Positions 9,180-40,733 of a DNA stretch of 64,000 nucleotides are shown one piece after another. The position numbers and the translations under genes are program-made. Below the pieces are notes generated by a model that saw only the letters and a list, made by a program, of their open reading frames with translations, had not been told where the DNA came from and did not search any database. This stretch comes from SAR86 cluster bacterium AG-339-G14 (lineage in GTDB: Bacteria > Pseudomonadota > Gammaproteobacteria > Magnimaribacterales > AG-339-G14): the NCBI GenBank assembly GCA_003282105.1, contig QCAB01000001.1, positions 49,785 through 113,784 of the forward strand, in the 5' to 3' direction. The number at the start of each line of letters is the position of its first letter. The stretch's first letter is position 1.

Positions 9180-9298
9180 TGTCCGATGACAATAGCAAGT
9201 GTGGCCCACCTGATTCCATATCGAACTCAGAAGTGAAACCACTTAGCGCCGATGGTAGTGTAGTTTTTTCTATGCGAGAGTAGGACATCGTCGGACTT
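9180..9298 (+). rRNA. rrf: 5S ribosomal RNA
   Basis: tgtccgatgac...cccacctgattccatatcgaactcagaagtgaaacc...gcgccgatggtagtgt...atgcgagagtaggacatcgtcggac aligns along its length with E. coli 5S. The terminal helix is formed by gtccga/tcggac. Confidence 0.92.
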
Positions 9299-9307
9299 CT
9301 TGTTAAA

Positions 9308-10114
9308 TCAGATAGTCCCCATACAAATTGCGTATTCTCCGTTTTCGTGGAAAAGGGGCTCCATGTTTATAGTTCCTAATCCGTCCATTAACATTTCTCT
9401 GAGAAGATCATATTTATAGGATCTTCCAATCACATATACTTTTTTTATGTCATTTATAGAAGCTACCGTAATAGCTGTTTTTAAAATTGTTTGTCCTACC
9501 ATGCTAATTATTCCGGCAGCTAAATCTTCTTTGTTGCATTCAGAATAATCTATTTTTCCAAAGTTCACGGCACTTGCAGATTCTGGTAGATTTCCAATTG
9601 GACCTGAAATAACATCTTTTAATAATAGATCCACTTTTTCTCTTTTCCCTTTAGACGAAAGAGCATTTATTATTATTGGATCATCTTCACCAACAATTAA
9701 TTTACTCAAACCTCTTATAGTACCTCCACCTAATCCAGTTCCTGCGGCATGGAAAATTTCACCTTCACTAAAGATTGCGCATGCTGAACCAGACCCAAGA
9801 CTCATGACCATAAATTTCTCTTCTTTAGGATGAAAAGTATTTATTGCTCCCTTAACAATTGCGTCGACTTCGTTGTAATGTTTTATTTCAATTCCTTCAT
9901 AAGACGAACCTAAAGCTTCGTGCTTACCTCCTGTAACCCCAATTATTTGTAAATTAGAAACATCATCTGTACAAGATGAGATTAACTCTTTAAGAAAATT
10001 GACAGAAGTATTTTTTGAGGAAAAAGTTTTAAATTTTAAGTTAGCACCATCGTCTATTACTACGTCGGTATTAGTTATACCAAAATCAATTCCTAACTTA
10101 ATGGATCTAGACAT
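9308..10114 (-). CDS. coaW: Type II pantothenate kinase (fumble/CoaW family, ASKHA fold)
   Basis: 268 aa. GIDFGITNTD (phosphate-1), VTGGKH, SLGSGS, AAGTGLGGGTIRGL, DLLLKDVISG, ASAVNFGK and C-terminal ENGEYAICMGTI follow the order and spacing I remember for S. aureus CoaW and eukaryotic PanK. Alternative: another small ASKHA sugar/acid kinase. Confidence 0.55.
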   Translation of the reverse strand: MSRSIKLGIDFGITNTDVVIDDGANLKFKTFSSKNTSVNFLKELISSCTDDVSNLQIIGVTGGKHEALGSSYEGIEIKHYNEVDAIVKGAINTFHPKEEKFMVMSLGSGSACAIFSEGEIFHAAGTGLGGGTIRGLSKLIVGEDDPIIINALSSKGKREKVDLLLKDVISGPIGNLPESASAVNFGKIDYSECNKEDLAAGIISMVGQTILKTAITVASINDIKKVYVIGRSYKYDLLREMLMDGLGTINMEPLFHENGEYAICMGTI

Positions 10115-10148
10115 GAGCTGTTATGAACAGCTTAATTTTTACCAAAAA

Positions 10149-11300
10149 CTAAGCATTAGCTTGTGCTTCTTGAATTGCTGCAAGCATGTCATCAGAATCT
10201 TTTTTAACTTGATCTGAGGATTCTAAAGGCTTAGAAATTTCAGCCCAATCAATTTCATAATCACTCGCAGCATTTTCATACTCAAGAATACCAAGTTCTT
10301 CGTATTTCGGTCTTACAGAGTCTGTAAGCAGACCAATTCTTTTTAGATTTGGCATAACCCTTGAAAATAAAAAGCTTCTGAATTGGTCTAAACCACCATT
10401 ATTTAATTGAAATACTCTAGCTTCTTCATCAGACATTTTTAAAAACTTTGTCATCGCTCCAGTATTTATCAATCTATCTTTTGAAACTACGCAGGCTTCA
10501 AAAGCGAATTCGGCTCTTTCTTCAATTTCTTCAGGAGAAAGAGTTTTAACAAAATCCTCTAAATAATTAATTCCAAAAGTTACGTGACGCGCTTCATCTC
10601 TTATGATGTAGTGAAGAAGAGTTTGCAAAAGAGGGTCTCTGGCAGAAAGCTTCATATTAGTAAAGGCCGCAAGAGCAAGTCCCTCAATAATAATTTGCAT
10701 TCCAATGAACTTTAAATCCCATCTTTCATCGGTAAGTATTTTATCTAATAAAGCTTTTAAACTCGGATTTATAGGGTAGTGAAAGCCAATTTTTTCCTGT
10801 AAATAACGATTGAAAACTTCAACATGCCTAGCTTCATCGAAAGTTTGAGAAGCAGCGTACATTTTTGCGTTAAAAGTTGGAGCACAACTTGCTATTTGTG
10901 AAGCTACTAATAGAGCCCCCTGCTCACCGTGAAGAAATTGACATAGAACCTCAGCAGTTTCATGTCTGTCGAATTCAATTTTTTCTTCTTGAGATAGGGC
11001 TTTGTAAGCATCTAATTGTTCGTGAGGAAATTCAACTCCATCAACTCCCAAAAGAGGCTCATCTGCTGGATGGGTGTAACTCCAGTCTAAATCTATTGAG
11101 CCATTCCAATTTAATTCTTTCCCAAGTTCGTAAAGCTTTTTTATTCTGTTTTCAGCTACAGTGTAGTCCCAATTGTAAGAACCAGTAAGAGGTGTATTAA
11201 AGATTTCTACAACGTCTTCAACATCTTTTTCTTTAAGATCCAGTTCGTCATCAAAATAAACTAAATCTTCGGGAGGACCCGGTCTTTTTGTGATTTTCAT
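10149..11300 (-). CDS. Ferritin-like diiron-carboxylate oxygenase (AurF / acyl-ACP-desaturase-like superfamily), substrate unknown
   Basis: 383 aa. Four-helix ligand pattern E / ExxH / E / ExxH seen as FLHGEQGAL, FDEARHVEVF, IIIEGLALAAF, IRDEARHVTFG. Confidence 0.6.
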   Translation of the reverse strand: MKITKRPGPPEDLVYFDDELDLKEKDVEDVVEIFNTPLTGSYNWDYTVAENRIKKLYELGKELNWNGSIDLDWSYTHPADEPLLGVDGVEFPHEQLDAYKALSQEEKIEFDRHETAEVLCQFLHGEQGALLVASQIASCAPTFNAKMYAASQTFDEARHVEVFNRYLQEKIGFHYPINPSLKALLDKILTDERWDLKFIGMQIIIEGLALAAFTNMKLSARDPLLQTLLHYIIRDEARHVTFGINYLEDFVKTLSPEEIEERAEFAFEACVVSKDRLINTGAMTKFLKMSDEEARVFQLNNGGLDQFRSFLFSRVMPNLKRIGLLTDSVRPKYEELGILEYENAASDYEIDWAEISKPLESSDQVKKDSDDMLAAIQEAQANA

Positions 11301-11359
11301 ATGGGTAAATTATTCCTTTGAGCCTTCAAAGTCAACATTTTTAACGAGTAATATTTTCC

Positions 11360-13108
11360 TTATCTTTCGGCAAATAATTCAGTTAGTTGTTCCAACATAA
11401 CTCCACCTAATTCTTCTGCCCTATGGATTGTTACAGCCTTGGAATAATACCTTGTTACATCATGTCCAATACCAATTGCAATCAGGTCGATATCTGTTTT
11501 GTTTTCAATATCTTTAATCACCGATTTTAAATGATTGTCCAAATAGCTTGTTGAATTTGTAGATAAAGTACTATCATCGACAGGTGCCCCATCGGAAATC
11601 ACCATGAGAATTTGTCTTTGTTCATGTCTTTTAAATAATCTGCTGCAAGCCCAAAGTAACGCTTCTCCGTCAACGTTTTCTTTGAGTAATCCTTCCCGCA
11701 GCATTAATCCTAGGTTTTTCTTTGCTCTTCTCCAGGCAAGATCTGCAGGTTTAAAAATAATATGACTAAGATCGTTAAGTCTACCTGGATTGCTTGGCTT
11801 GCCGCATTCAACCCATAACTTACGACTGTCTCCACCTTTCCAATGTTTTGTTGTAAAACCTAAGATTTCTGTTTTTATATTACACCTATCTAATGTCGCT
11901 CCAATGATATCTGCTGAAATCGCGGCTGTTGTCATAGATCTTCCTCTCATTGAGCCAGAACTGTCGACAAGAATAGTCACTACAGTGTCTTTAAATTTTG
12001 TGTCTTTTTCTTGTTTAAAGCTTAAAGGCGTTAGAGGATCGGTTATTATTTTAGTTAATTTAGATGTATCCAATATCCCTTCATCTTTATCGTACTCCCA
12101 AGATCTGTTTTGCTGAGCTAACAGTAATCTTTGAAGTCTATTAGCTAATTTAGCAATTACACTTTTGCTTGGATCTATTAATTGATCTAATCTTATCCTT
12201 AACCTTTTCAGCTCTTCTTGTGCACATAGATCCTCTGCGTCGACAATTTCATCAAAGTCTCTACAGAACACTTTGTATTCTTGATTGTTTTCGACATTAA
12301 ATAATTCTTCTAGTTTGGATCTATTTTCGATCCAATTTTCATCTGAATCTTCGACCTCTTCCTCTTCAAATTCCATTTCCTCAGAAGATTCCGAATCGGT
12401 TGGAGATTCTTCTGGAGAGCCTTCTTCCTGCGGCTCTTCATCTTGATTTTCCTCATCTGATTCTTCGTCTTCACTGTCATCATCATCAGATGAGCTTTCT
12501 TCTTTTTGTTCTTCTTCTTCAAATTTAATGTTGAGCTCTTTAAGAAGATTTTGAATACTCTCAAGATATGACTCCTTGTCCTTAATATTGTTTTTAAGTT
12601 CAGGAATAAATTTTTTCTCTATTTTTTTTAAATCTTTACTGAATGGTTCTAAAATTTTTTCTTCCAGAGCTGTAAATTTATTCCCTAGAATTTTCCCTTT
12701 GATCCAAATATCTAAAATTTTATTAATGCTCTCAATTGCTGACTCCGGTTTAAATTCTTCTAATTCTTCAACGAAATTATTTCTTAGATTGCTTTTGAGA
12801 CCTTTGTACTGGAGTGAACCTAAGACTTCAATTCGAACGCTGTTTTGCACCGAGAGGCTTTGATCTAATTCATTATTACCAGTAATTTCACTTCTTAACT
12901 CATTAGAAAACTTTTCTTTCAGAGCTATCTTGTCGGCTTTCGCTCTGCTTAGGTTTAATCCATGCAAGGAGCTTTCGGGAAGAGGAATTGAATTAGAATG
13001 AATTGAATCGCTTCCGAAATTAAGTTCCAAGTCAGTTTTGGAGGAAATTGCTCTAGAAGAGGAAGAGAGCGCTTCCTTTAATATTTGTTCTTTGGATCTA
13101 TCACTCAA
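11360..13108 (-). CDS. cobT: CobT-type protein: N-terminal domain, long acidic linker, C-terminal von Willebrand A domain
   Basis: 582 aa. About 60-aa D/E/S-rich linker ([28 protein letters not shown]...). VWA MIDAS motif DSSGSM in [11 protein letters not shown]. Architecture and 4-nt overlap with cobS as in alphaproteobacterial CobS/CobT. Confidence 0.7.
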
Positions 13109-14097
13109 TCTTGATCTATCAAATTGCTTATTGAATCAGACGTTTCTTGATCAAAACATCTTTGAAAATACTCGGCTATGATTGGCTTCTCTGTCTCATC
13201 GCACTTATTCAGAAAGCTTAATTCAAAAGAAGAAACTAAATCAGAAAAAATTTGAAAATTTTCAGCCCAACTTATTACTGTTCTGGGCGACATCAAATTG
13301 GAGATGTCTCCATTTTTAAAACCCTCTCGCGTAAGATTTGCGAGTTCGATCATATTTTTTACAACTTCCGAACCTTTTTTATTGTCTAAGCTCTTTACTT
13401 TTGACAAGACTACTTTCGTTTCCAATTCAACGCTCAAATAATTTAAGCATGAGACTATTTGCCATCTGTCCATTTGACCTTGGTTGATTTGCTGGGTGCC
13501 GTGATAGAGTCCAGTACTGTCTCCAAGACCGACAGTATTTGCAGTAGCGAAAAGTCTGAAAAAAGGATTTGGAGTGAGCACTCTATTTTGATCCAAAAGA
13601 GTTAACCTTCCATCTACCTCAAGTACACGCTGAATTACGAACATAACATCAGGTCTACCAGCATCGTATTCGTCAAAAACTAAGGCGGTTGGATTCTGAA
13701 TGGCCCAAGGAAGGATGCCCTCTTGGAACTTTGTGACTTGTTTGTCTTTTTCTAAAGTAATAGCATCTTTACCCAAGAGATCCAATCTGCTGATGTGTGA
13801 ATCTAAATTAATTCTGACACAAGGCCAATTTAATCTGGCCGCGACTTGCTCAATGTGAGTAGATTTTCCAGAACCATGAAGACCTTGGATCATGACTCTT
13901 CGATTGTCAGAAAAGCCGGCTAAAATTGCGAGAGTTGTGCTTCTATCGAAACAATAAGTATCATCAATATCCGGCACATATTCGTTAGCTTCCGCAAAGG
14001 CAGGAACTTCAAAATCAGCGTCTATACCAAAAGTATTGCCAACGTTTAGTGAAATATCAGGAATATTTTTAGAGAAATTGTTATATGTTGTTGCCAT
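13105..14097 (-). CDS. cobS: CobS-type MoxR-class AAA+ ATPase
   Basis: 330 aa. Walker [10 protein letters not shown], then [31 protein letters not shown] and Walker B LVFDEYD. This closely matches my memory of CobS sequences. Confidence 0.75.
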
Positions 14098-14197
14098 AAT
14101 TTAGAATTCTTATTATCCTTTTTTCATTTAAAACAGCAAGATAATATACTTACGATCTAGTAAACTATTCGACTTCAAATCTATCTAAACTAAGCTT

Positions 14198-14987: not shown

Positions 14988-15860
14988 ATGTCAGATCAAA
15001 AACTACTAGATGAATTAATCAAAACTTTGAATCTTGAGAAACTCGAAGAAAATTTATTTCGAGGACAAAGTGAACAAACTGCTTGGGGCAGAGTTTTTGG
15101 TGGGCAGGTAATAGGACAAGCGCTAAGCGCAACTCAAGAAACTGTAGACAATTCAAGAAAAGCTCATTCTTTGCACGCTTATTTTTTAAGACCTGGAAGA
15201 ATTGATATGCCTATTCTTTATGACGTGCAAAGAATAAGAGATGGGAAAAGCTTTACCACGCGCACAGTTAATGCGATTCAAAACGGTGAGTATATTTTTA
15301 ATATGTCTGTCTCATTCAAAATATCCGAAGAAGGCCTGGAGCATCAATTTGAAATGCCAGATGTTCCGAGTCCTGAAGAACTAAAGAGCGATAGGGAGTT
15401 TAGAGAAGAGATGAAAGACAAAATTCCAAAAGCAATGCTTGAGGGGTTTTTAAGAGATAAACCAATTGAAATAAGAAACGTAGAAAATTTAAATCCATTT
15501 GACAACGAGAAGGGCGAGCCCTTCAAAAATATGTGGATAAAGGCCTCTGGAAAATTGCCTGACAATCATTTAATCCATCAAGGAGTTTTAGCTTATGCAT
15601 CGGACATGGGCTTGCTTGGTACTTCCCAGCGACCACATGGATTTAGTTTTGGAGCTTATGAAAAACTTCAAGTAGCTAGTCTTGATCATGCGATGTGGTT
15701 TCATCGGGAGTTTAGGGCCGATGAATGGCTGCTTTATTCTTTAGATAGTCCATCCGCTAGTAATGCAAATGGATTCAATAGAGGTAATATTTTTACTCAG
15801 GACGGTAAACTGGTTGCATCGGCTGTTCAAGAAGGCTTAATAAGAGTGAAGGACAAATGA
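14988..15860 (+). CDS. tesB: Acyl-CoA thioesterase II
   Basis: Start moved to ATG 14988 (MSDQKLLDEL...), 1 nt after the cysE stop. LFRGQS...GRVFGGQVIGQAL and double hot-dog length (about 290 aa) are typical of TesB. Confidence 0.85.
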   Translation: MSDQKLLDELIKTLNLEKLEENLFRGQSEQTAWGRVFGGQVIGQALSATQETVDNSRKAHSLHAYFLRPGRIDMPILYDVQRIRDGKSFTTRTVNAIQNGEYIFNMSVSFKISEEGLEHQFEMPDVPSPEELKSDREFREEMKDKIPKAMLEGFLRDKPIEIRNVENLNPFDNEKGEPFKNMWIKASGKLPDNHLIHQGVLAYASDMGLLGTSQRPHGFSFGAYEKLQVASLDHAMWFHREFRADEWLLYSLDSPSASNANGFNRGNIFTQDGKLVASAVQEGLIRVKDK

Positions 15861-16387
15861 AACGATTTCTACAGTTAGTATTCATTTTTTTAAGTATTAA
15901 TATTTCAACTGAAGAAATGATCATTGGATCGGAGACAATAGATCCTGGGATCAAAATAGTTTTTGAAGCCGCTCCAAAAGATACAGTCTTTCCTGAAAAA
16001 TTTTACTTAGCAGAATCAGAGACAGATATACATATTGAAATGTTGGCTAATTGGTCTGAAGACAATCTTGTTTCAGTGCCTTCAGGCGGTTTTGTCGCCT
16101 ATCTAAATGTGAAAGCTATCGTTGCAAATGAAAAAGGAGCAACTATTGAAACCGATTTAACTCCACATTTAAATTTAGTAGACAATTTACATTATGCTCA
16201 AAATATTAAGTTACCTGGAGGCATCGAGGATTTTTATAATGTGACTTTCATTATTGGGCCTCCTGATAGCGAGTCTTTTGGCATACATTATGATTGGCAT
16301 GAAAAGTTTGGAGGCTTAATTCAAGAAAGCTCTTTTACTTATAAAAATTTAAATTTTGAACAAATTGCTTCAAAACAAAGAAGATAA
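15857..16387 (+). CDS. Periplasmic P19/FetP/Tp34-family iron-transport protein (secreted)
   Basis: 176 aa with signal peptide. DIHIEMLANW, GGFVAYLNVKAIVAN, PHLNLVDNLHYAQNIKL and YNVTFIIGPP align with FetP DVHLEADIHA, GEWIPYLTISYTLVN, PMVASDGPHYGANIKM and YKVTYHIEPP (from memory). ATGA overlap with tesB. Confidence 0.55.
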   Translation: MKRFLQLVFIFLSINISTEEMIIGSETIDPGIKIVFEAAPKDTVFPEKFYLAESETDIHIEMLANWSEDNLVSVPSGGFVAYLNVKAIVANEKGATIETDLTPHLNLVDNLHYAQNIKLPGGIEDFYNVTFIIGPPDSESFGIHYDWHEKFGGLIQESSFTYKNLNFEQIASKQRR

Positions 16388-38336: not shown

Positions 38337-39062
38337 ATGGAAAATAAAGTTAATGTTATTTGTATGAAATGGGGAGAAAAATACGATTCTTCCTATGTAA
38401 ATATTTTGTACAACATGGTCGATAGAAATTTAAAGAGACCTTTTAGATTTGTTTGTTTTACTGATAATAAATCAGGCTTATTAGATTCAATAGAATCATT
38501 TGATTTGCCTAGCTTAAATCTTCCTGTGGGAATTCCTGAAAGAGGGTGGATGAAAATCTCTACCTTTGCTTCAAATTTGCATGATCTTTCTGGCAAGACT
38601 CTTTTTTTGGATCTGGATATAGTTATCATAGATAACATCGATGCTTTTTTTGACTACTCCGGTGATTTTTTAATCATAAAAGACTTTAGAAAAAAAAATT
38701 TCATAGGCAACAGCTCGGTTTATAGATTTGAAATTGGAAAGTATTATGATGTTTTGGAACATTTCAGAGAAAACTTTGAAAAAATAAAGACATCGTTTAG
38801 AAATGAACAAGAATTTTTGTCTGATTACATGAAAAAGAATCATTCTTTAGAATATTGGCCGGAAGATTGGTGCAAAAGCTTTAAAAAAGATTGTGTAGAG
38901 AAAGGAATAAAACAATTTTTTAAGCCTCCAAAAATTCCTTCTTCGGCTAAAATAATCATCTTCCATGGCAAACCCAATCCTCCAGATGCAATGATTGGGA
39001 AAGGTGGAAAATGGTATAGAAAGGTACTGCCAACTCCATGGATTAAAGATAATTGGAGATAA
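38337..39062 (+). CDS. Putative nucleotide-sugar-dependent glycosyltransferase (GT-A-like, DxD), uncharacterised family
   Basis: About 241 aa from ATG 38337 (TTG 38325 also possible). VICMKWGEKYDSSYVNILYNMVDRNL..FRFVCFTDN followed by LFLDLDIVIIDNID (DxD-like). Family membership is from memory only. Confidence 0.35.
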   Translation: MENKVNVICMKWGEKYDSSYVNILYNMVDRNLKRPFRFVCFTDNKSGLLDSIESFDLPSLNLPVGIPERGWMKISTFASNLHDLSGKTLFLDLDIVIIDNIDAFFDYSGDFLIIKDFRKKNFIGNSSVYRFEIGKYYDVLEHFRENFEKIKTSFRNEQEFLSDYMKKNHSLEYWPEDWCKSFKKDCVEKGIKQFFKPPKIPSSAKIIIFHGKPNPPDAMIGKGGKWYRKVLPTPWIKDNWR

Positions 39063-39066
39063 TAAA

Positions 39067-39879
39067 ATGTCATCGGAATCAATAAAACCTATTTCTTTAC
39101 AAACTTTAAGAGATCTAAAAAGCTCAGGGAAAAAATTTGCTGCATTAACTTCCTATGAATCAACAATGACCACCATGATGTGTGAGGCTGGAGTTGATCT
39201 AATTTTAGTCGGAGACAGTCTCGGAATGGTGATTCAAGGTCATGACTCAACTGTCCCTGTTTCGATGGAAGATATTTTATATCATCTGAGATGCGTCAAA
39301 AATGGTAATTCTAATGCACATATAATGGCAGACATGCCTTTTATGAGTTATGCAACTGAGCAGCTTGCTTACACCAATGCGACTCGACTGATGCAGGGCG
39401 GTGCAAACAGCATCAAAGTAGAAGGAGGAGAGGTGATTCTTAAAATAACAGAACTATTGGCCAATAAAGGTATTCCTATTTGTGCTCACTTAGGGTTAAC
39501 ACCTCAATCAATTAATAGAATTGGCGGTTATTTCGTTCAAGGCAGAGATCCTTCTTCTCATGACAAATTTATAGCCGAGGCTAAAGACCTAGAAAATGCG
39601 GGAGCAGAACTTATCCTTTTAGAATGTATACCAGTCGAGTTAACTGAAAAAATAGTAGATGCATTGTCCATTCCAACTATAGGAATAGGAGCTGGATCTT
39701 TGACCGATGGCCAGATAATGGTGATACATGATTTACTTGGCATCACTTGTTTGGAAACGCCGCCTAAATTTGTTAAAAATTTTTTGGAAAAAGGGGAAAC
39801 AATTCAAAGTGCCATTAGAAAATATGTTCTTGAAGTAAAAAGTGGAGCTTACCCTTCAACTGAACATTGTTTTAAATAG
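39067..39879 (+). CDS. panB: 3-methyl-2-oxobutanoate hydroxymethyltransferase
   Basis: Start at ATG 39067 (MSSESIKPISLQTL...). LTSYE, LVGDSLGMV, VKVEGG and GHLGLTPQS-like motifs. Confidence 0.9.
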   Translation: MSSESIKPISLQTLRDLKSSGKKFAALTSYESTMTTMMCEAGVDLILVGDSLGMVIQGHDSTVPVSMEDILYHLRCVKNGNSNAHIMADMPFMSYATEQLAYTNATRLMQGGANSIKVEGGEVILKITELLANKGIPICAHLGLTPQSINRIGGYFVQGRDPSSHDKFIAEAKDLENAGAELILLECIPVELTEKIVDALSIPTIGIGAGSLTDGQIMVIHDLLGITCLETPPKFVKNFLEKGETIQSAIRKYVLEVKSGAYPSTEHCFK

Positions 39880-40733
39880 TGATCAAAGTTCAATCTTTAA
39901 ATCAACTTTCAACGATTCCTTTCAAAAAACCTTTCGCATTGATACCAACAATGGGAAACTTGCATGCGGGACATATAAGCTTATTAAAGACCGCATTAAA
40001 AAAAAACTACAATCCAGTAGTCTCAATTTTTGTAAATCCGCTTCAATTTGGTCCCAACGAAGATTTAGATAAATATCCAAGGTCGTTGGAAAGAGATTTA
40101 GAAATTTTAGAAGAAAATAATTGTCATGGAGTTTTTATTCCTTCACAAAGTGAAATTCTAAAAAATATAGAATCTCTTATTGCGCCATTTGCCAATAAGT
40201 TATGTGGCAAGTCGAGACCTGGACATTTTGATGGGGTCATTACAATTGTTAATAGGCTTTTTGAGTTAATAAAACCCGATGCTTGTGTTTTTGGTATGAA
40301 AGATTTTCAACAACAGTTAATTATTAAACAGTTGATCAAGCAAAAAAAATATCAAATAAAATTTTTATTGGCTTCTACTGAAAGAGACGAAAATGGTTTA
40401 GCACTCTCGTCTCGAAATAATTACCTCAGTGAACATGAAACAATCCACGCTTCCTCGATTTTTAAATTTCTAAATGAAATAAAAAATGACATTGAATTTA
40501 GCTATCAAAAAAATACGAATTTATCGCTAGACGATCTTGATTTAATACAAAAAAAATGCAAAAAGAAAATTGAAAAGGAAGGGTTTAAGATTGATTATCT
40601 TGATATTTCGGATTCCGAAACCTTGGAGGAAATAAAATTGGATACTAAGATTGTTTTGATTGCAATTGCAGTTTTTTACAAAGAAGTAAGACTTATTGAT
40701 AACTTAATTTTAGATTTAACCTCTTTTTCTTAA
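39879..40733 (+). CDS. panC: Pantoate--beta-alanine ligase
   Basis: 284 aa. PTMGNLHAGHISL (HIGH-like), FVNPLQFGPNEDL, RPGHFDGV. GTG start overlapping the panB stop by 1 nt. Confidence 0.9.
   Translation: MIKVQSLNQLSTIPFKKPFALIPTMGNLHAGHISLLKTALKKNYNPVVSIFVNPLQFGPNEDLDKYPRSLERDLEILEENNCHGVFIPSQSEILKNIESLIAPFANKLCGKSRPGHFDGVITIVNRLFELIKPDACVFGMKDFQQQLIIKQLIKQKKYQIKFLLASTERDENGLALSSRNNYLSEHETIHASSIFKFLNEIKNDIEFSYQKNTNLSLDDLDLIQKKCKKKIEKEGFKIDYLDISDSETLEEIKLDTKIVLIAIAVFYKEVRLIDNLILDLTSFS

Follow-up and report, generated by a model that had tools for sequence, protein, structure and literature searches.

A conserved cobS-cobT pair without a neighbouring cobN in SAR86, and the adjacent gene for a predicted diiron oxidase

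What do the motor and adaptor of a cobaltochelatase do where no gene for their large subunit, CobN, lies nearby? The question is raised by a co-directional cluster of four genes (cobS, cobT, a diiron oxidase gene and a type II panK) in a member of SAR86 (Magnimaribacterales) with a genome of about 1.3 Mb. We analysed a stretch of 64,000 nucleotides of this genome, referred to here as the window (Table 1). The original prediction had described a CobS/CobT-type pair without cobN or corrin genes, had taken the adjacent diiron oxygenase as the obvious candidate for its client, and had seen in the two a possible undescribed chaperone-client module. The features that it described for the cobS-like, cobT-like, diiron and PanK-like ORFs were all found in place, and the ORF coordinates agree with a 4-nt overlap of cobS and cobT (13105-13108), a 59-nt gap between cobT and the diiron gene, and a PanK-like gene behind the latter, beginning 34 nt downstream. 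The PanK-like gene is the last of the co-directional cluster and is convergent with a 5S rRNA gene. Its product matches Pfam Fumble (1.2e-16, 61.3 bits, cut-off 28.5) and scores 158.8 against NF009842, for which the cut-off is 234. The divergent intergenic region between cobS and cysE is likely the promoter region for cobS and cobT, perhaps together with the diiron gene and panK; a consensus scan of it returned three promoter-like matches on the plus strand and none on the minus strand.

Table 1. Features of the cobS-cobT locus, in positions of the window
Feature	Position	Strand	Description and basis
cobS-like gene	13105-14097	-	330 aa MoxR-class AAA+ ATPase; ORF, Pfam CobS_N + AAA_5
cobT-like gene	11360-13108	-	582 aa; ORF, Pfam CobT_C + CobT
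cobT-diiron spacer	11301-11359	-	59 nt
Diiron protein gene	10149-11300	-	383 aa; Pfam family AurF
Type II PanK-like gene (Fumble family)	9308-10114	-	268 aa
Divergent intergenic region, cobS (-)/cysE (+)	14098-14197	.	100 nt; gene coordinates

Judged by sequence, the two proteins are orthologues of the motor (the CobS AAA+ ATPase) and the adaptor (CobT, with its VWA-MIDAS) of the Brucella melitensis cobaltochelatase, with their motifs intact, and the claim that the pair is a genuine CobS/CobT thus holds. CobS, whose ORF contains GLHGSGKST and a second block [27 protein letters not shown], aligns with B. melitensis CobS (9ujv) at 474 bits over residues 10-327, with 64% identity over the alignment; its Walker A (GLHGSGKST) and Walker B (LVFDEYD) motifs both align to that protein. 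Pfam finds CobS_N (2e-11, 43.8 bits, cut-off 22.2) and AAA_5 (4e-12, 46.7 bits). CobT aligns over nearly its full length with B. melitensis CobT (9uka_G; 493 bits), the DSSGS of its MIDAS motif (VDSSGSM) matching DNSGS, and is recognized by CobT_C (VWA, PF11775; 5.5e-91) and CobT (PF06213; 9.4e-22). Its N-terminal domain (residues ~1-195) evolves fast, the linker that follows (~196-262) is acidic, and the C-terminal VWA domain is conserved; a close relative is named “cobaltochelatase CobT-related protein” by NCBI. The pair shares with the aerobic CobNST enzymes (B. melitensis 9ujv/9uka; the Pseudomonas denitrificans enzyme) the same two families, gene order and near-overlap, along with a highly similar C-terminal VWA in CobT. 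However, both proteins fall under the NCBIfam equivalog cut-offs (CobS, 507.7 bits against 558.55 for TIGR01650; CobT, 593.8 bits against 759.05 for TIGR01651), and the SAR86 pair differs further in lacking a cob or cbi gene nearby and in belonging to a lineage reported to be auxotrophic for B12.

The absence of cobN and corrin genes from the window was correctly predicted: Pfam annotation of essentially every ORF of at least 120 aa found no cob or cbi gene, cobN included. No cobalamin riboswitch was found in the window either, where the Rfam matches comprise the rRNA operon only, and neither cobN nor the corrin pathway lies in the 20-kb flanks of 12 related loci. The text of one SAR86 study states that SAR86 A-D lack every gene of the B12 pathway, and takes a B12 transporter to be in keeping with auxotrophy (PMC3358033); btuB is present across the whole order (PMC11582366), and SAR86 responds to added B12 (PMC9296465). 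From this literature and from the window, which offer neither a CobN nor a corrin pathway, we infer an orphan motor-adaptor pair acting on a non-corrin client. The genome-wide absence of cobN is drawn from the literature, and here the SAR86 study conflicts with itself, its Table 1 giving B12 as “Yes” for SAR86B (PMC3358033).

That entry would suit an ordinary cobaltochelatase: other parts of the genome would encode CobN and, at a minimum, the late steps of aerobic corrin synthesis, or CobST would serve a CobN-family chelatase or dechelatase that acts on a salvaged corrinoid or tetrapyrrole. The very high identity to proven CobS and CobT also points this way, as does a CobN homologue in Bacteroidota that is reported to act as a haem dechelatase. 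Moreover, alphaproteobacteria-type cobS-cobT pairs are themselves far from cobN, with no CobN-like ORF within 10 kb at 80 loci, so that little can be concluded from a window without cobN. We nevertheless consider an ordinary cobaltochelatase quite improbable, given the reported loss of the pathway, the B12 uptake and response data, genomes of 1.2-1.3 Mb and the sub-cut-off scores. A further argument comes from CobT itself, whose N-terminal domain makes the contact with CobN in the holoenzyme (bioRxiv 10.64898/2026.07.21.739949). At equal CobS divergence, conservation of this domain is lower in SAR86 than in alpha-type pairs, both in the 65-70% bin of CobS (0.20 vs 0.39) and in the 75-80% bin (0.35 vs 0.51), and the domain thus evolves faster in SAR86. 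Alpha-type cobS-cobT adjoins genes for a J-domain protein and BolA, not cob genes, and these neighbours are absent at the SAR86 pair. A hybrid query for SAR11-type cobS returned only contigs of GC 0.50-0.70 from a metagenome scan.

It had also been proposed that CobS/CobT-like pairs persist in organisms that do not make corrins. In the literature that we searched, this is documented only for viruses and for ChlID-type pairs, with nothing on orphan cobST in SAR86, SAR11 or Rickettsiales, nor on cobST beside J-domain and BolA genes; cobS, cobT and cobN have no entry in the supplements of the SAR86 isolate paper. Among the viral “auxiliary metabolic genes” of cyanophages, pelagimyophages and haloarchaeal viruses, a cobS-cobT pair is carried without cobN, its role unproven (PMC8651126; PMC7029224). 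The SAR86 pair resembles these in gene content but belongs to a cellular, alpha-type lineage. We rejected a phage origin, as phage CobT-like proteins match just the VWA part, at about 30% identity; two scans of viral contigs gave one partial cobS without cobT and one weak match, with no close relative. Pairs of small and medium chelatase subunits (chlI/chlD, frameshifted chlD), of unassigned role, occur in genomes without chlH or cobN and with neither pathway (PMC9227772). They too are motor-adaptor pairs whose large subunit is missing, but they belong to the ChlI/ChlD branch, whereas the SAR86 pair is CobS/CobT proper.

Might the pair simply be a decaying remnant or a selfish passenger without cellular function? 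Its distribution within SAR86 is indel-like, and the N-terminal domain and linker of CobT are very divergent. However, the ORFs are intact at every locus with Walker A/B and MIDAS conserved, and streamlined genomes have retained the pair throughout a clade in which the diiron proteins are down to ~62-65% identity. Between SAR86 clades, cobS shows a pN of 0.15-0.23 at a pS of ~0.8 (saturated), a constraint equal to or tighter than that of tesB in the same pN/pS comparison. The pair is under strong purifying selection, and these selection data effectively refute a remnant or passenger, which we regard as highly improbable.

One candidate for a non-corrin client is the diiron protein. The E/ExxH/E/ExxH ligand pattern proposed for it is real, as shown by its conservation across an alignment of 29 family members, in which H124, D155-E156-x-x-H159, E206 and D235-E236-x-x-H239 never vary and E126 is conserved at 90% or more. 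The protein scores 43.4 bits against Pfam AurF (PF11583; cut-off 29.6), and its AlphaFold2 model is a helical bundle (pLDDT 84.7) whose top PDB fold matches are R2-like ligand-binding oxidases (R2lox) and RNR R2, with TM-scores to R2lox of just ~0.47-0.65. By sequence, a putative aldehyde-deformylating oxygenase ranks first among PDB entries (E=9e-7 over 150 residues). We therefore predict a ferritin-like diiron (or Mn/Fe) carboxylate oxidase, orthologous to a widespread unnamed family with 2091 representatives at E<=1e-3. It shares with AurF-family (PF11583) and R2lox-type oxidases a four-helix-bundle dimetal site with E/ExxH/E/ExxH ligands, but has no close characterized relative. Fusions within the family to CAR-like A-PCP-R modules and to ABC1 kinases hint at aldehyde or lipid substrates. 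As regards arylamine N-oxygenase activity, no biosynthetic cluster surrounds the diiron gene, its neighbours being housekeeping genes, and clustering of ORFs within 6 kb at 82 loci found no neighbour conserved outside SAR86; the other contexts, too, consist of housekeeping genes (rplI-dnaB/pyrG-kdsA-eno, patatin, MFS).

If the diiron oxygenase were the obvious client of CobST, the two should travel together, and a survey of neighbourhoods and co-occurrence does not bear this out. The cobS-cobT-diiron triad was found at 9 of 80 genome loci and at 3 metagenome loci, all from one SAR86 clade, and the arrangement is present on a 1.285-Mb contig. Orthologous diiron proteins with 57-64% identity and the same motifs are encoded in sister SAR86, Alcanivorax, Halieaceae, Hyphomonas, Caulobacter and Polyangiaceae at loci without an AAA+/VWA neighbour. 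At 57 informative diiron loci from other taxa there is no CobS/CobT or other AAA+/VWA neighbour, and a phmmer search of the 6 kb around each unlinked diiron gene found no further AAA+/VWA protein. From the opposite direction, the diiron gene is present at none of 80 non-SAR86 cobS loci, 40 of which reach at least 1.5 kb past cobT. The origin of the linkage can be read from close relatives. One linked locus (L001) has the order hemE (+), tesB (-), SDR (-), cobS (+), cobT (+), diiron gene (+); two sister SAR86 loci (L009 and L012) have hemE (+), tesB (-), SDR (-), diiron gene (+), with cobST missing at that point. The linked diiron proteins group in a single clade whose sister group comprises those of these two loci, and in a third SAR86 clade the diiron gene lies between rplI-dnaB and pyrG-kdsA-eno. 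Because sister SAR86 share the synteny and the diiron gene without cobST there, and the triad is confined to one clade, the linkage traces to one indel event. The cobST pair is a two-gene indel directly upstream of the diiron gene, which one insertion or one loss would have brought under cobST read-through. With a single event behind the linkage and diiron loci elsewhere without cobST, the adjacency is best read as one insertion or loss, and not as evidence of a dedicated module.

Within the linked clade, though, several observations do stand against a purely positional reading. The triad is unbroken in 12 of 12 linked loci while both flanks vary: the upstream gene is cysE or SDR, and 0-3 different genes are inserted between the diiron gene and panK. 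Wherever the flank of a linked SAR86 locus is long enough, a panK homologue lies downstream of the diiron gene, at a distance that differs between loci. The spacer between cobT and the diiron gene measures 37-63 nt in an alignment across 8 linked loci and is poorly conserved in the window's subclade. In the window's own 59-nt spacer a consensus scan found no terminator-like or promoter-like site on the minus strand; read-through from cobST into the diiron gene is therefore plausible, and, with spacers this short and no detectable terminator, the genes are probably co-expressed. A Fur/Zur-like palindrome, considered as a candidate element of this spacer, is real in three linked loci (L001, L007 and L008) and absent from the window, and was set aside. 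In addition, one would expect a streamlined genome to retain cobST only if it encodes a client, of which the diiron protein is the sole candidate named.

Taken further, these observations would support a dedicated module, in which the diiron oxidase co-transcribed in this SAR86 clade has gained CobS6-CobT as its ATP-driven metallochaperone or activase. Such a module would parallel NorQ/NorD, which insert non-haem iron into NorB, or CbbQ/CbbO, which remodel Rubisco, and the authors of the CobSTN structure explicitly liken its motor-adaptor-effector logic to NorQD and CbbQO. The client would in this case be a metalloenzyme whose dimetal site is buried, and at one locus (L011) the diiron gene is duplicated in tandem and the duplicate, too, stands directly behind cobT. 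As in NorQ/NorD-cNOR, CbbQ/CbbO-Rubisco and CoxD/CoxE, the motor and VWA-MIDAS adaptor genes lie side by side with a metalloenzyme gene immediately downstream, which would fit a proposed 6:1:1 motor-adaptor-effector logic. These systems are nevertheless distant in sequence (CbbQ matches CobS at E ~1e-7 to 1e-6), and the conserved linkage to the client gene across taxa that defines them was found here only within one SAR86 clade. The linked diiron proteins carry no clade-specific insertion, tail or ligand change, and there is a fair chance that a random neighbour is a metalloprotein. Set beside the single evolutionary origin of the linkage and the unlinked loci of both partners elsewhere, this leaves an undescribed chaperone-client module weakly supported, and we think it unlikely that CobST and the diiron oxidase form a dedicated unit. 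The diiron protein as such stays a candidate client of CobST, if a doubtful one. Our preferred explanation, to which we give about an even chance, is an orphan CobST motor-adaptor with a non-corrin client, where the diiron gene would be co-transcribed by virtue of its position and its product would be one candidate client. By analogy with CobSTN of B. melitensis, whose structure is known, a hexamer of CobS would hold a single CobT with its shaft inside the ring; a client protein would dock on the VWA/MIDAS side of CobT, and ATP hydrolysis would be passed on to remodel the metal site of that client. A more specific version of the module, in which one SAR86 clade acquired a CobS-CobT motor horizontally and re-purposed it for the co-transcribed diiron oxidase, as an ATP-driven metallochaperone or activase that needs no CobN, strikes us as rather improbable.

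In ocean metagenomes, cobS and cobT are routinely taken as markers of B12 synthesis. The strongly conserved cobST of SAR86, which ranks among the most abundant surface-ocean bacteria and is a predicted B12 auxotroph, indicates that matches to cobS and cobT need not mean B12 production. For the question of chelatase motor-adaptor pairs without a large subunit, it offers a cellular and abundant example from a now culturable order, with the downstream diiron oxidase as one concrete candidate client. The position of alpha-type cobS-cobT beside J-domain and BolA genes may be taken as a lead towards a function beyond cobalt insertion, though not as evidence of one. Should the re-purposing be true, it would add a new class of client for CobST-type motors, and the SAR86 protein would be the first case of a ferritin-like dimetal oxidase matured by an AAA+/VWA factor.

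All four co-directional genes of the original prediction were recovered on the minus strand of window 9308-14097, with every detail as described, including the overlap of cobS with cobT and the spacing of cobT and the diiron gene. Likewise, no cob or cbi genes were found by Pfam annotation of the window, the remainder of which carries housekeeping genes only, and an Rfam scan of the window returned the rRNA operon as its sole match. This highly transcribed operon converges on the cobS-cobT-diiron-panK unit, leaving a gap of 11 nt.

Coordinates of the features in the window and in the metagenome and genome loci compared with it
Feature	Locus	Position	Strand	Remarks
cobS-like	window	13105-14097	-	330 aa; Pfam CobS_N and AAA_5
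cobT-like	window	11360-13108	-	582 aa; 4-nt overlap with cobS; Pfam CobT and CobT_C (VWA, 5.5e-91)
ferritin-like diiron protein	window	10149-11300	-	383 aa; 59 nt 3' of cobT; Pfam AurF, 43.4 bits (cut-off 29.6)
PanK-like	window	9308-10114	-	268 aa; 34 nt downstream of diiron gene; Pfam Fumble
5S rRNA gene	window	ends 9296	+	region 9182-9308
P19-type Fe2+ transport protein gene	window	15857-16387		between tesB and CMD/TonB-receptor genes
panB, panC	window	38995-40733		ketopantoate hydroxymethyltransferase, pantoate-beta-alanine ligase
metallo-beta-lactamase-fold gene	L165	6269-7231		replaces P19-type gene
tandem diiron genes	L011	400-1503 and 1513-2652		directly behind cobT
palindrome	L007	9964-9980
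palindrome	L008	9962-9978
palindrome	L001	~9960-9985
J-domain gene	L085	1016-1645
cobS	L085	1800-2828
cobT	L085	2993-4906
BolA gene	L087	8526-8840

The genomes most closely related at this locus are SAR86 MAGs and single-cell genomes, and a 1.285-Mb SAR86 contig (L165) has the identical order gltB, gltD, TBDR, CMD, tesB, cysE, followed by cobS, cobT, diiron, panK, and then by the rRNA operon and tyrS. This contig is otherwise collinear, with a different gene in the slot of the P19-type gene. The PanK-like kinase of the window appears to be of type II (Fumble), a kind that is rare in bacteria. In the cobST-linked clade its gene is present at distances that vary, and none occurs within 10 kb in two sister SAR86 loci that lack cobST (L009, L012). 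Pantothenate synthesis was scored absent in the first SAR86 genome paper (PMC3358033), whereas the window carries panB and panC.

CobS matches CobS of Brucella melitensis with 474 bits over residues 10-327 (64% identity), and CobT matches its counterpart with 493 bits, the C-terminal VWA half being very similar with an intact DxSxS MIDAS and the N-terminal domain matching much more weakly. The nearest NCBIfam families are cobaltochelatase equivalogs, with scores below the cut-off for both CobS (507.7 vs 558.55) and CobT (593.8 vs 759.05). A phage origin was considered and rejected: phage CobT-like proteins are only ~30% identical, and the pair is therefore of a cellular, alphaproteobacterial type. 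Between SAR86 clades, cobS shows a pN of 0.15-0.23 at a pS of ~0.8, at which synonymous sites are saturated, and its constraint is as tight as that of tesB or tighter. Judged by this purifying selection, the pair is functional, and that it is a decaying remnant seems scarcely credible.

The literature on B12 in SAR86 is not uniform. The text of PMC3358033 reports the B12 pathway genes as all missing from four SAR86 genomes, with thiamine as the exception in SAR86B, but its Table 1 contradicts this for SAR86B (B12 "Yes", thiamine "No"), and PMC9296465 repeats the version of the table. An isolate-anchored study found btuB throughout the SAR86 order (PMC11582366), and addition of B12 to mesocosms led to an increase of SAR86 (PMC9296465). 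Taking the 64-kb window together with this literature, the status of the SAR86 cobST as an orphan pair is well supported, though not proven. An ordinary chelatase with its cobN elsewhere in the genome would be another reading, to be set beside the similarity to the Brucella proteins on the one hand and the reported lack of B12 genes on the other; we regard it as very unlikely. The CobT N-terminal domain touches CobN in the solved holoenzyme (bioRxiv 10.64898/2026.07.21.739949). Comparing SAR86 pairs (L001-L028) with 50 alpha-type pairs (from L085-L164) at equal CobS divergence, conservation of this domain (residues ~1-195) was 0.20 in SAR86 vs 0.39 in the alpha-type at a CobS identity of 65-70%, and 0.35 vs 0.51 at 75-80%, while the VWA halves of both behave alike at higher identities. 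This faster drift would fit the loss of a CobN partner, but is only suggestive since the pairs are few and non-independent.

The original prediction named the adjacent diiron oxygenase as the evident candidate for a client of the pair, and the distribution of the linkage does not bear this out. We compared 80 genome loci with relatives of the diiron protein, each including up to 10 kb per side as far as the contig reached. The diiron gene immediately follows cobS/cobT in 9 of these, all SAR86-type; cobS/cobT are missing from 57 others, whose upstream sequence spans at least 3 kb, and the other 14 are not long enough to decide. A phmmer search within 6 kb of the unlinked diiron genes found no other AAA+ or VWA relative. 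Unlinked orthologs with 57-64% identity occur in other SAR86, Alcanivorax, Halieaceae, Hyphomonas, Caulobacter, and Polyangiaceae. Linked and unlinked proteins agree in all conserved motifs, among them the segments EIFxTPLxGxYNWDY (N-terminal) and IDWAExxKPL (C-terminal), and comparison of the two revealed no insertion or tail peculiar to the linked ones. Reciprocally, a CobS alignment scanned against metagenomes yielded 80 non-SAR86 loci (GC 0.50-0.70), with cobT 3' of cobS in 50 and the remaining 30 cut off; none of the 80 has a diiron homolog, 40 of them reaching at least 1.5 kb past cobT. Within SAR86, the linked locus L001 has the order hemE+, tesB-, SDR-, cobS+, cobT+, diiron+, and L009 and L012 read hemE+, tesB-, SDR-, diiron+, where SDR and diiron are only 16-27 nt apart. 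A neighbor-joining tree unites the linked diiron proteins in one clade, with L009/L012 as its sister group; in a third SAR86 clade the diiron gene lies between dnaB and pyrG. The shared synteny and the single clade therefore mark cobST as a two-gene indel before a resident diiron gene. On this gene order, which we consider decisive, the association amounts to a single evolutionary event.

That event, the 57 unlinked loci, and the empty reciprocal set weigh against a dedicated chaperone for the diiron protein, which we consider unlikely even though several features of the linked loci speak for it. The triad is intact in 12/12 linked loci (the 9 genome loci plus L001, L002, and L165) despite changing flanks, with cysE or SDR upstream and zero to three unrelated genes between diiron and panK. 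Between cobT and the diiron gene lie 37-63 nt; in the window, the coding strand of this spacer carries neither a terminator-like nor a promoter-like site. A tandem diiron duplicate in L011 (SAR86 AG-343-J11) also sits directly behind cobT. Together these make co-expression of cobT and the diiron gene likely; however, plain retention of an operon made by insertion would equally give these features. The first diiron copy of L011 is a deep, divergent branch of the tree. In one SAR86 subclade, the spacer holds a perfect palindrome, TGTTTACAnTGTAAACA, with AA/TT flanks, ~20 nt before the diiron start codon. Its outer halves, AATGTT...AACATT, resemble Fur-family (Zur/Fur) operators; the window has no match to it with up to 3 mismatches allowed.

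The family to which the diiron protein belongs is large and unnamed, with 2091 representatives at E<=1e-3 and 320 at E<=1e-30. The predicted E/ExxH/E/ExxH ligand set (E126, E156/H159, E206, E236/H239) is invariant or nearly so in a 29-member alignment, in which H124 is invariant as well. The confident AlphaFold2 model of the protein (pLDDT 84.7) best matches R2-like ligand-binding oxidases and RNR R2 proteins in the PDB, at modest TM-scores of ~0.47-0.65; by sequence, the PDB entry that matches best is a putative aldehyde-deformylating oxygenase (E=9e-7). Family members include CAR-like fusions of ~1400 aa with AMP-binding, carrier, and terminal reductase domains (P0156, P0180, P0181, P0207, P0262), and fusions to ABC1/UbiB atypical kinases (P0160, P0173) or a ferredoxin-reductase-type NAD-binding domain (P0252). 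The fusions suggest that members of the family act on aldehyde, lipid, or quinone-type compounds and carry their own electron supply; from matches and fusions, we infer an aldehyde/lipid-type substrate for the SAR86 protein, which would agree with the description of SAR86 as lipid degraders (PMC3358033). These data give no hint of chaperone dependence.

The 80 alpha-type metagenome loci (L085-L164) carry cobS-cobT outside any cob operon, in a conserved housekeeping neighborhood: aroK, aroB, and a CNNM/CorC transporter upstream, BolA divergent on the opposite strand, and a phytase-like esterase, DUF3108, and a Suv3-like helicase downstream. Of the 71 loci with sufficient upstream sequence, 59 have, immediately before cobS, a gene for a 209-aa protein that is Cys/His-rich at its N-terminus and ends in a J-domain. 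None of four large ORFs tested, from 15 of at least 1000 aa, was CobN-like. These neighbors hint that canonical CobST may act in a chaperone or Fe-S-related context, a linkage on which we found no paper. In the SAR86 loci, neither a J-domain gene nor BolA lies near cobST.

By analogy, the SAR86 pair would most likely work mechanically as the solved CobSTN machine does, with a CobS hexamer driving one CobT adaptor whose VWA-MIDAS face would dock a client other than CobN-bound corrin. An orphan motor with such a client, the diiron gene being merely co-transcribed, is the reading to which we give about even chances. Orphan chelatase motor-adaptor pairs are already known from viruses (PMC7029224, PMC8651126), as are ChlI/ChlD-type orphan pairs from bacteria with neither pathway (PMC9227772). 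Thus, the SAR86 pair joins a known puzzle rather than representing a new type of system.
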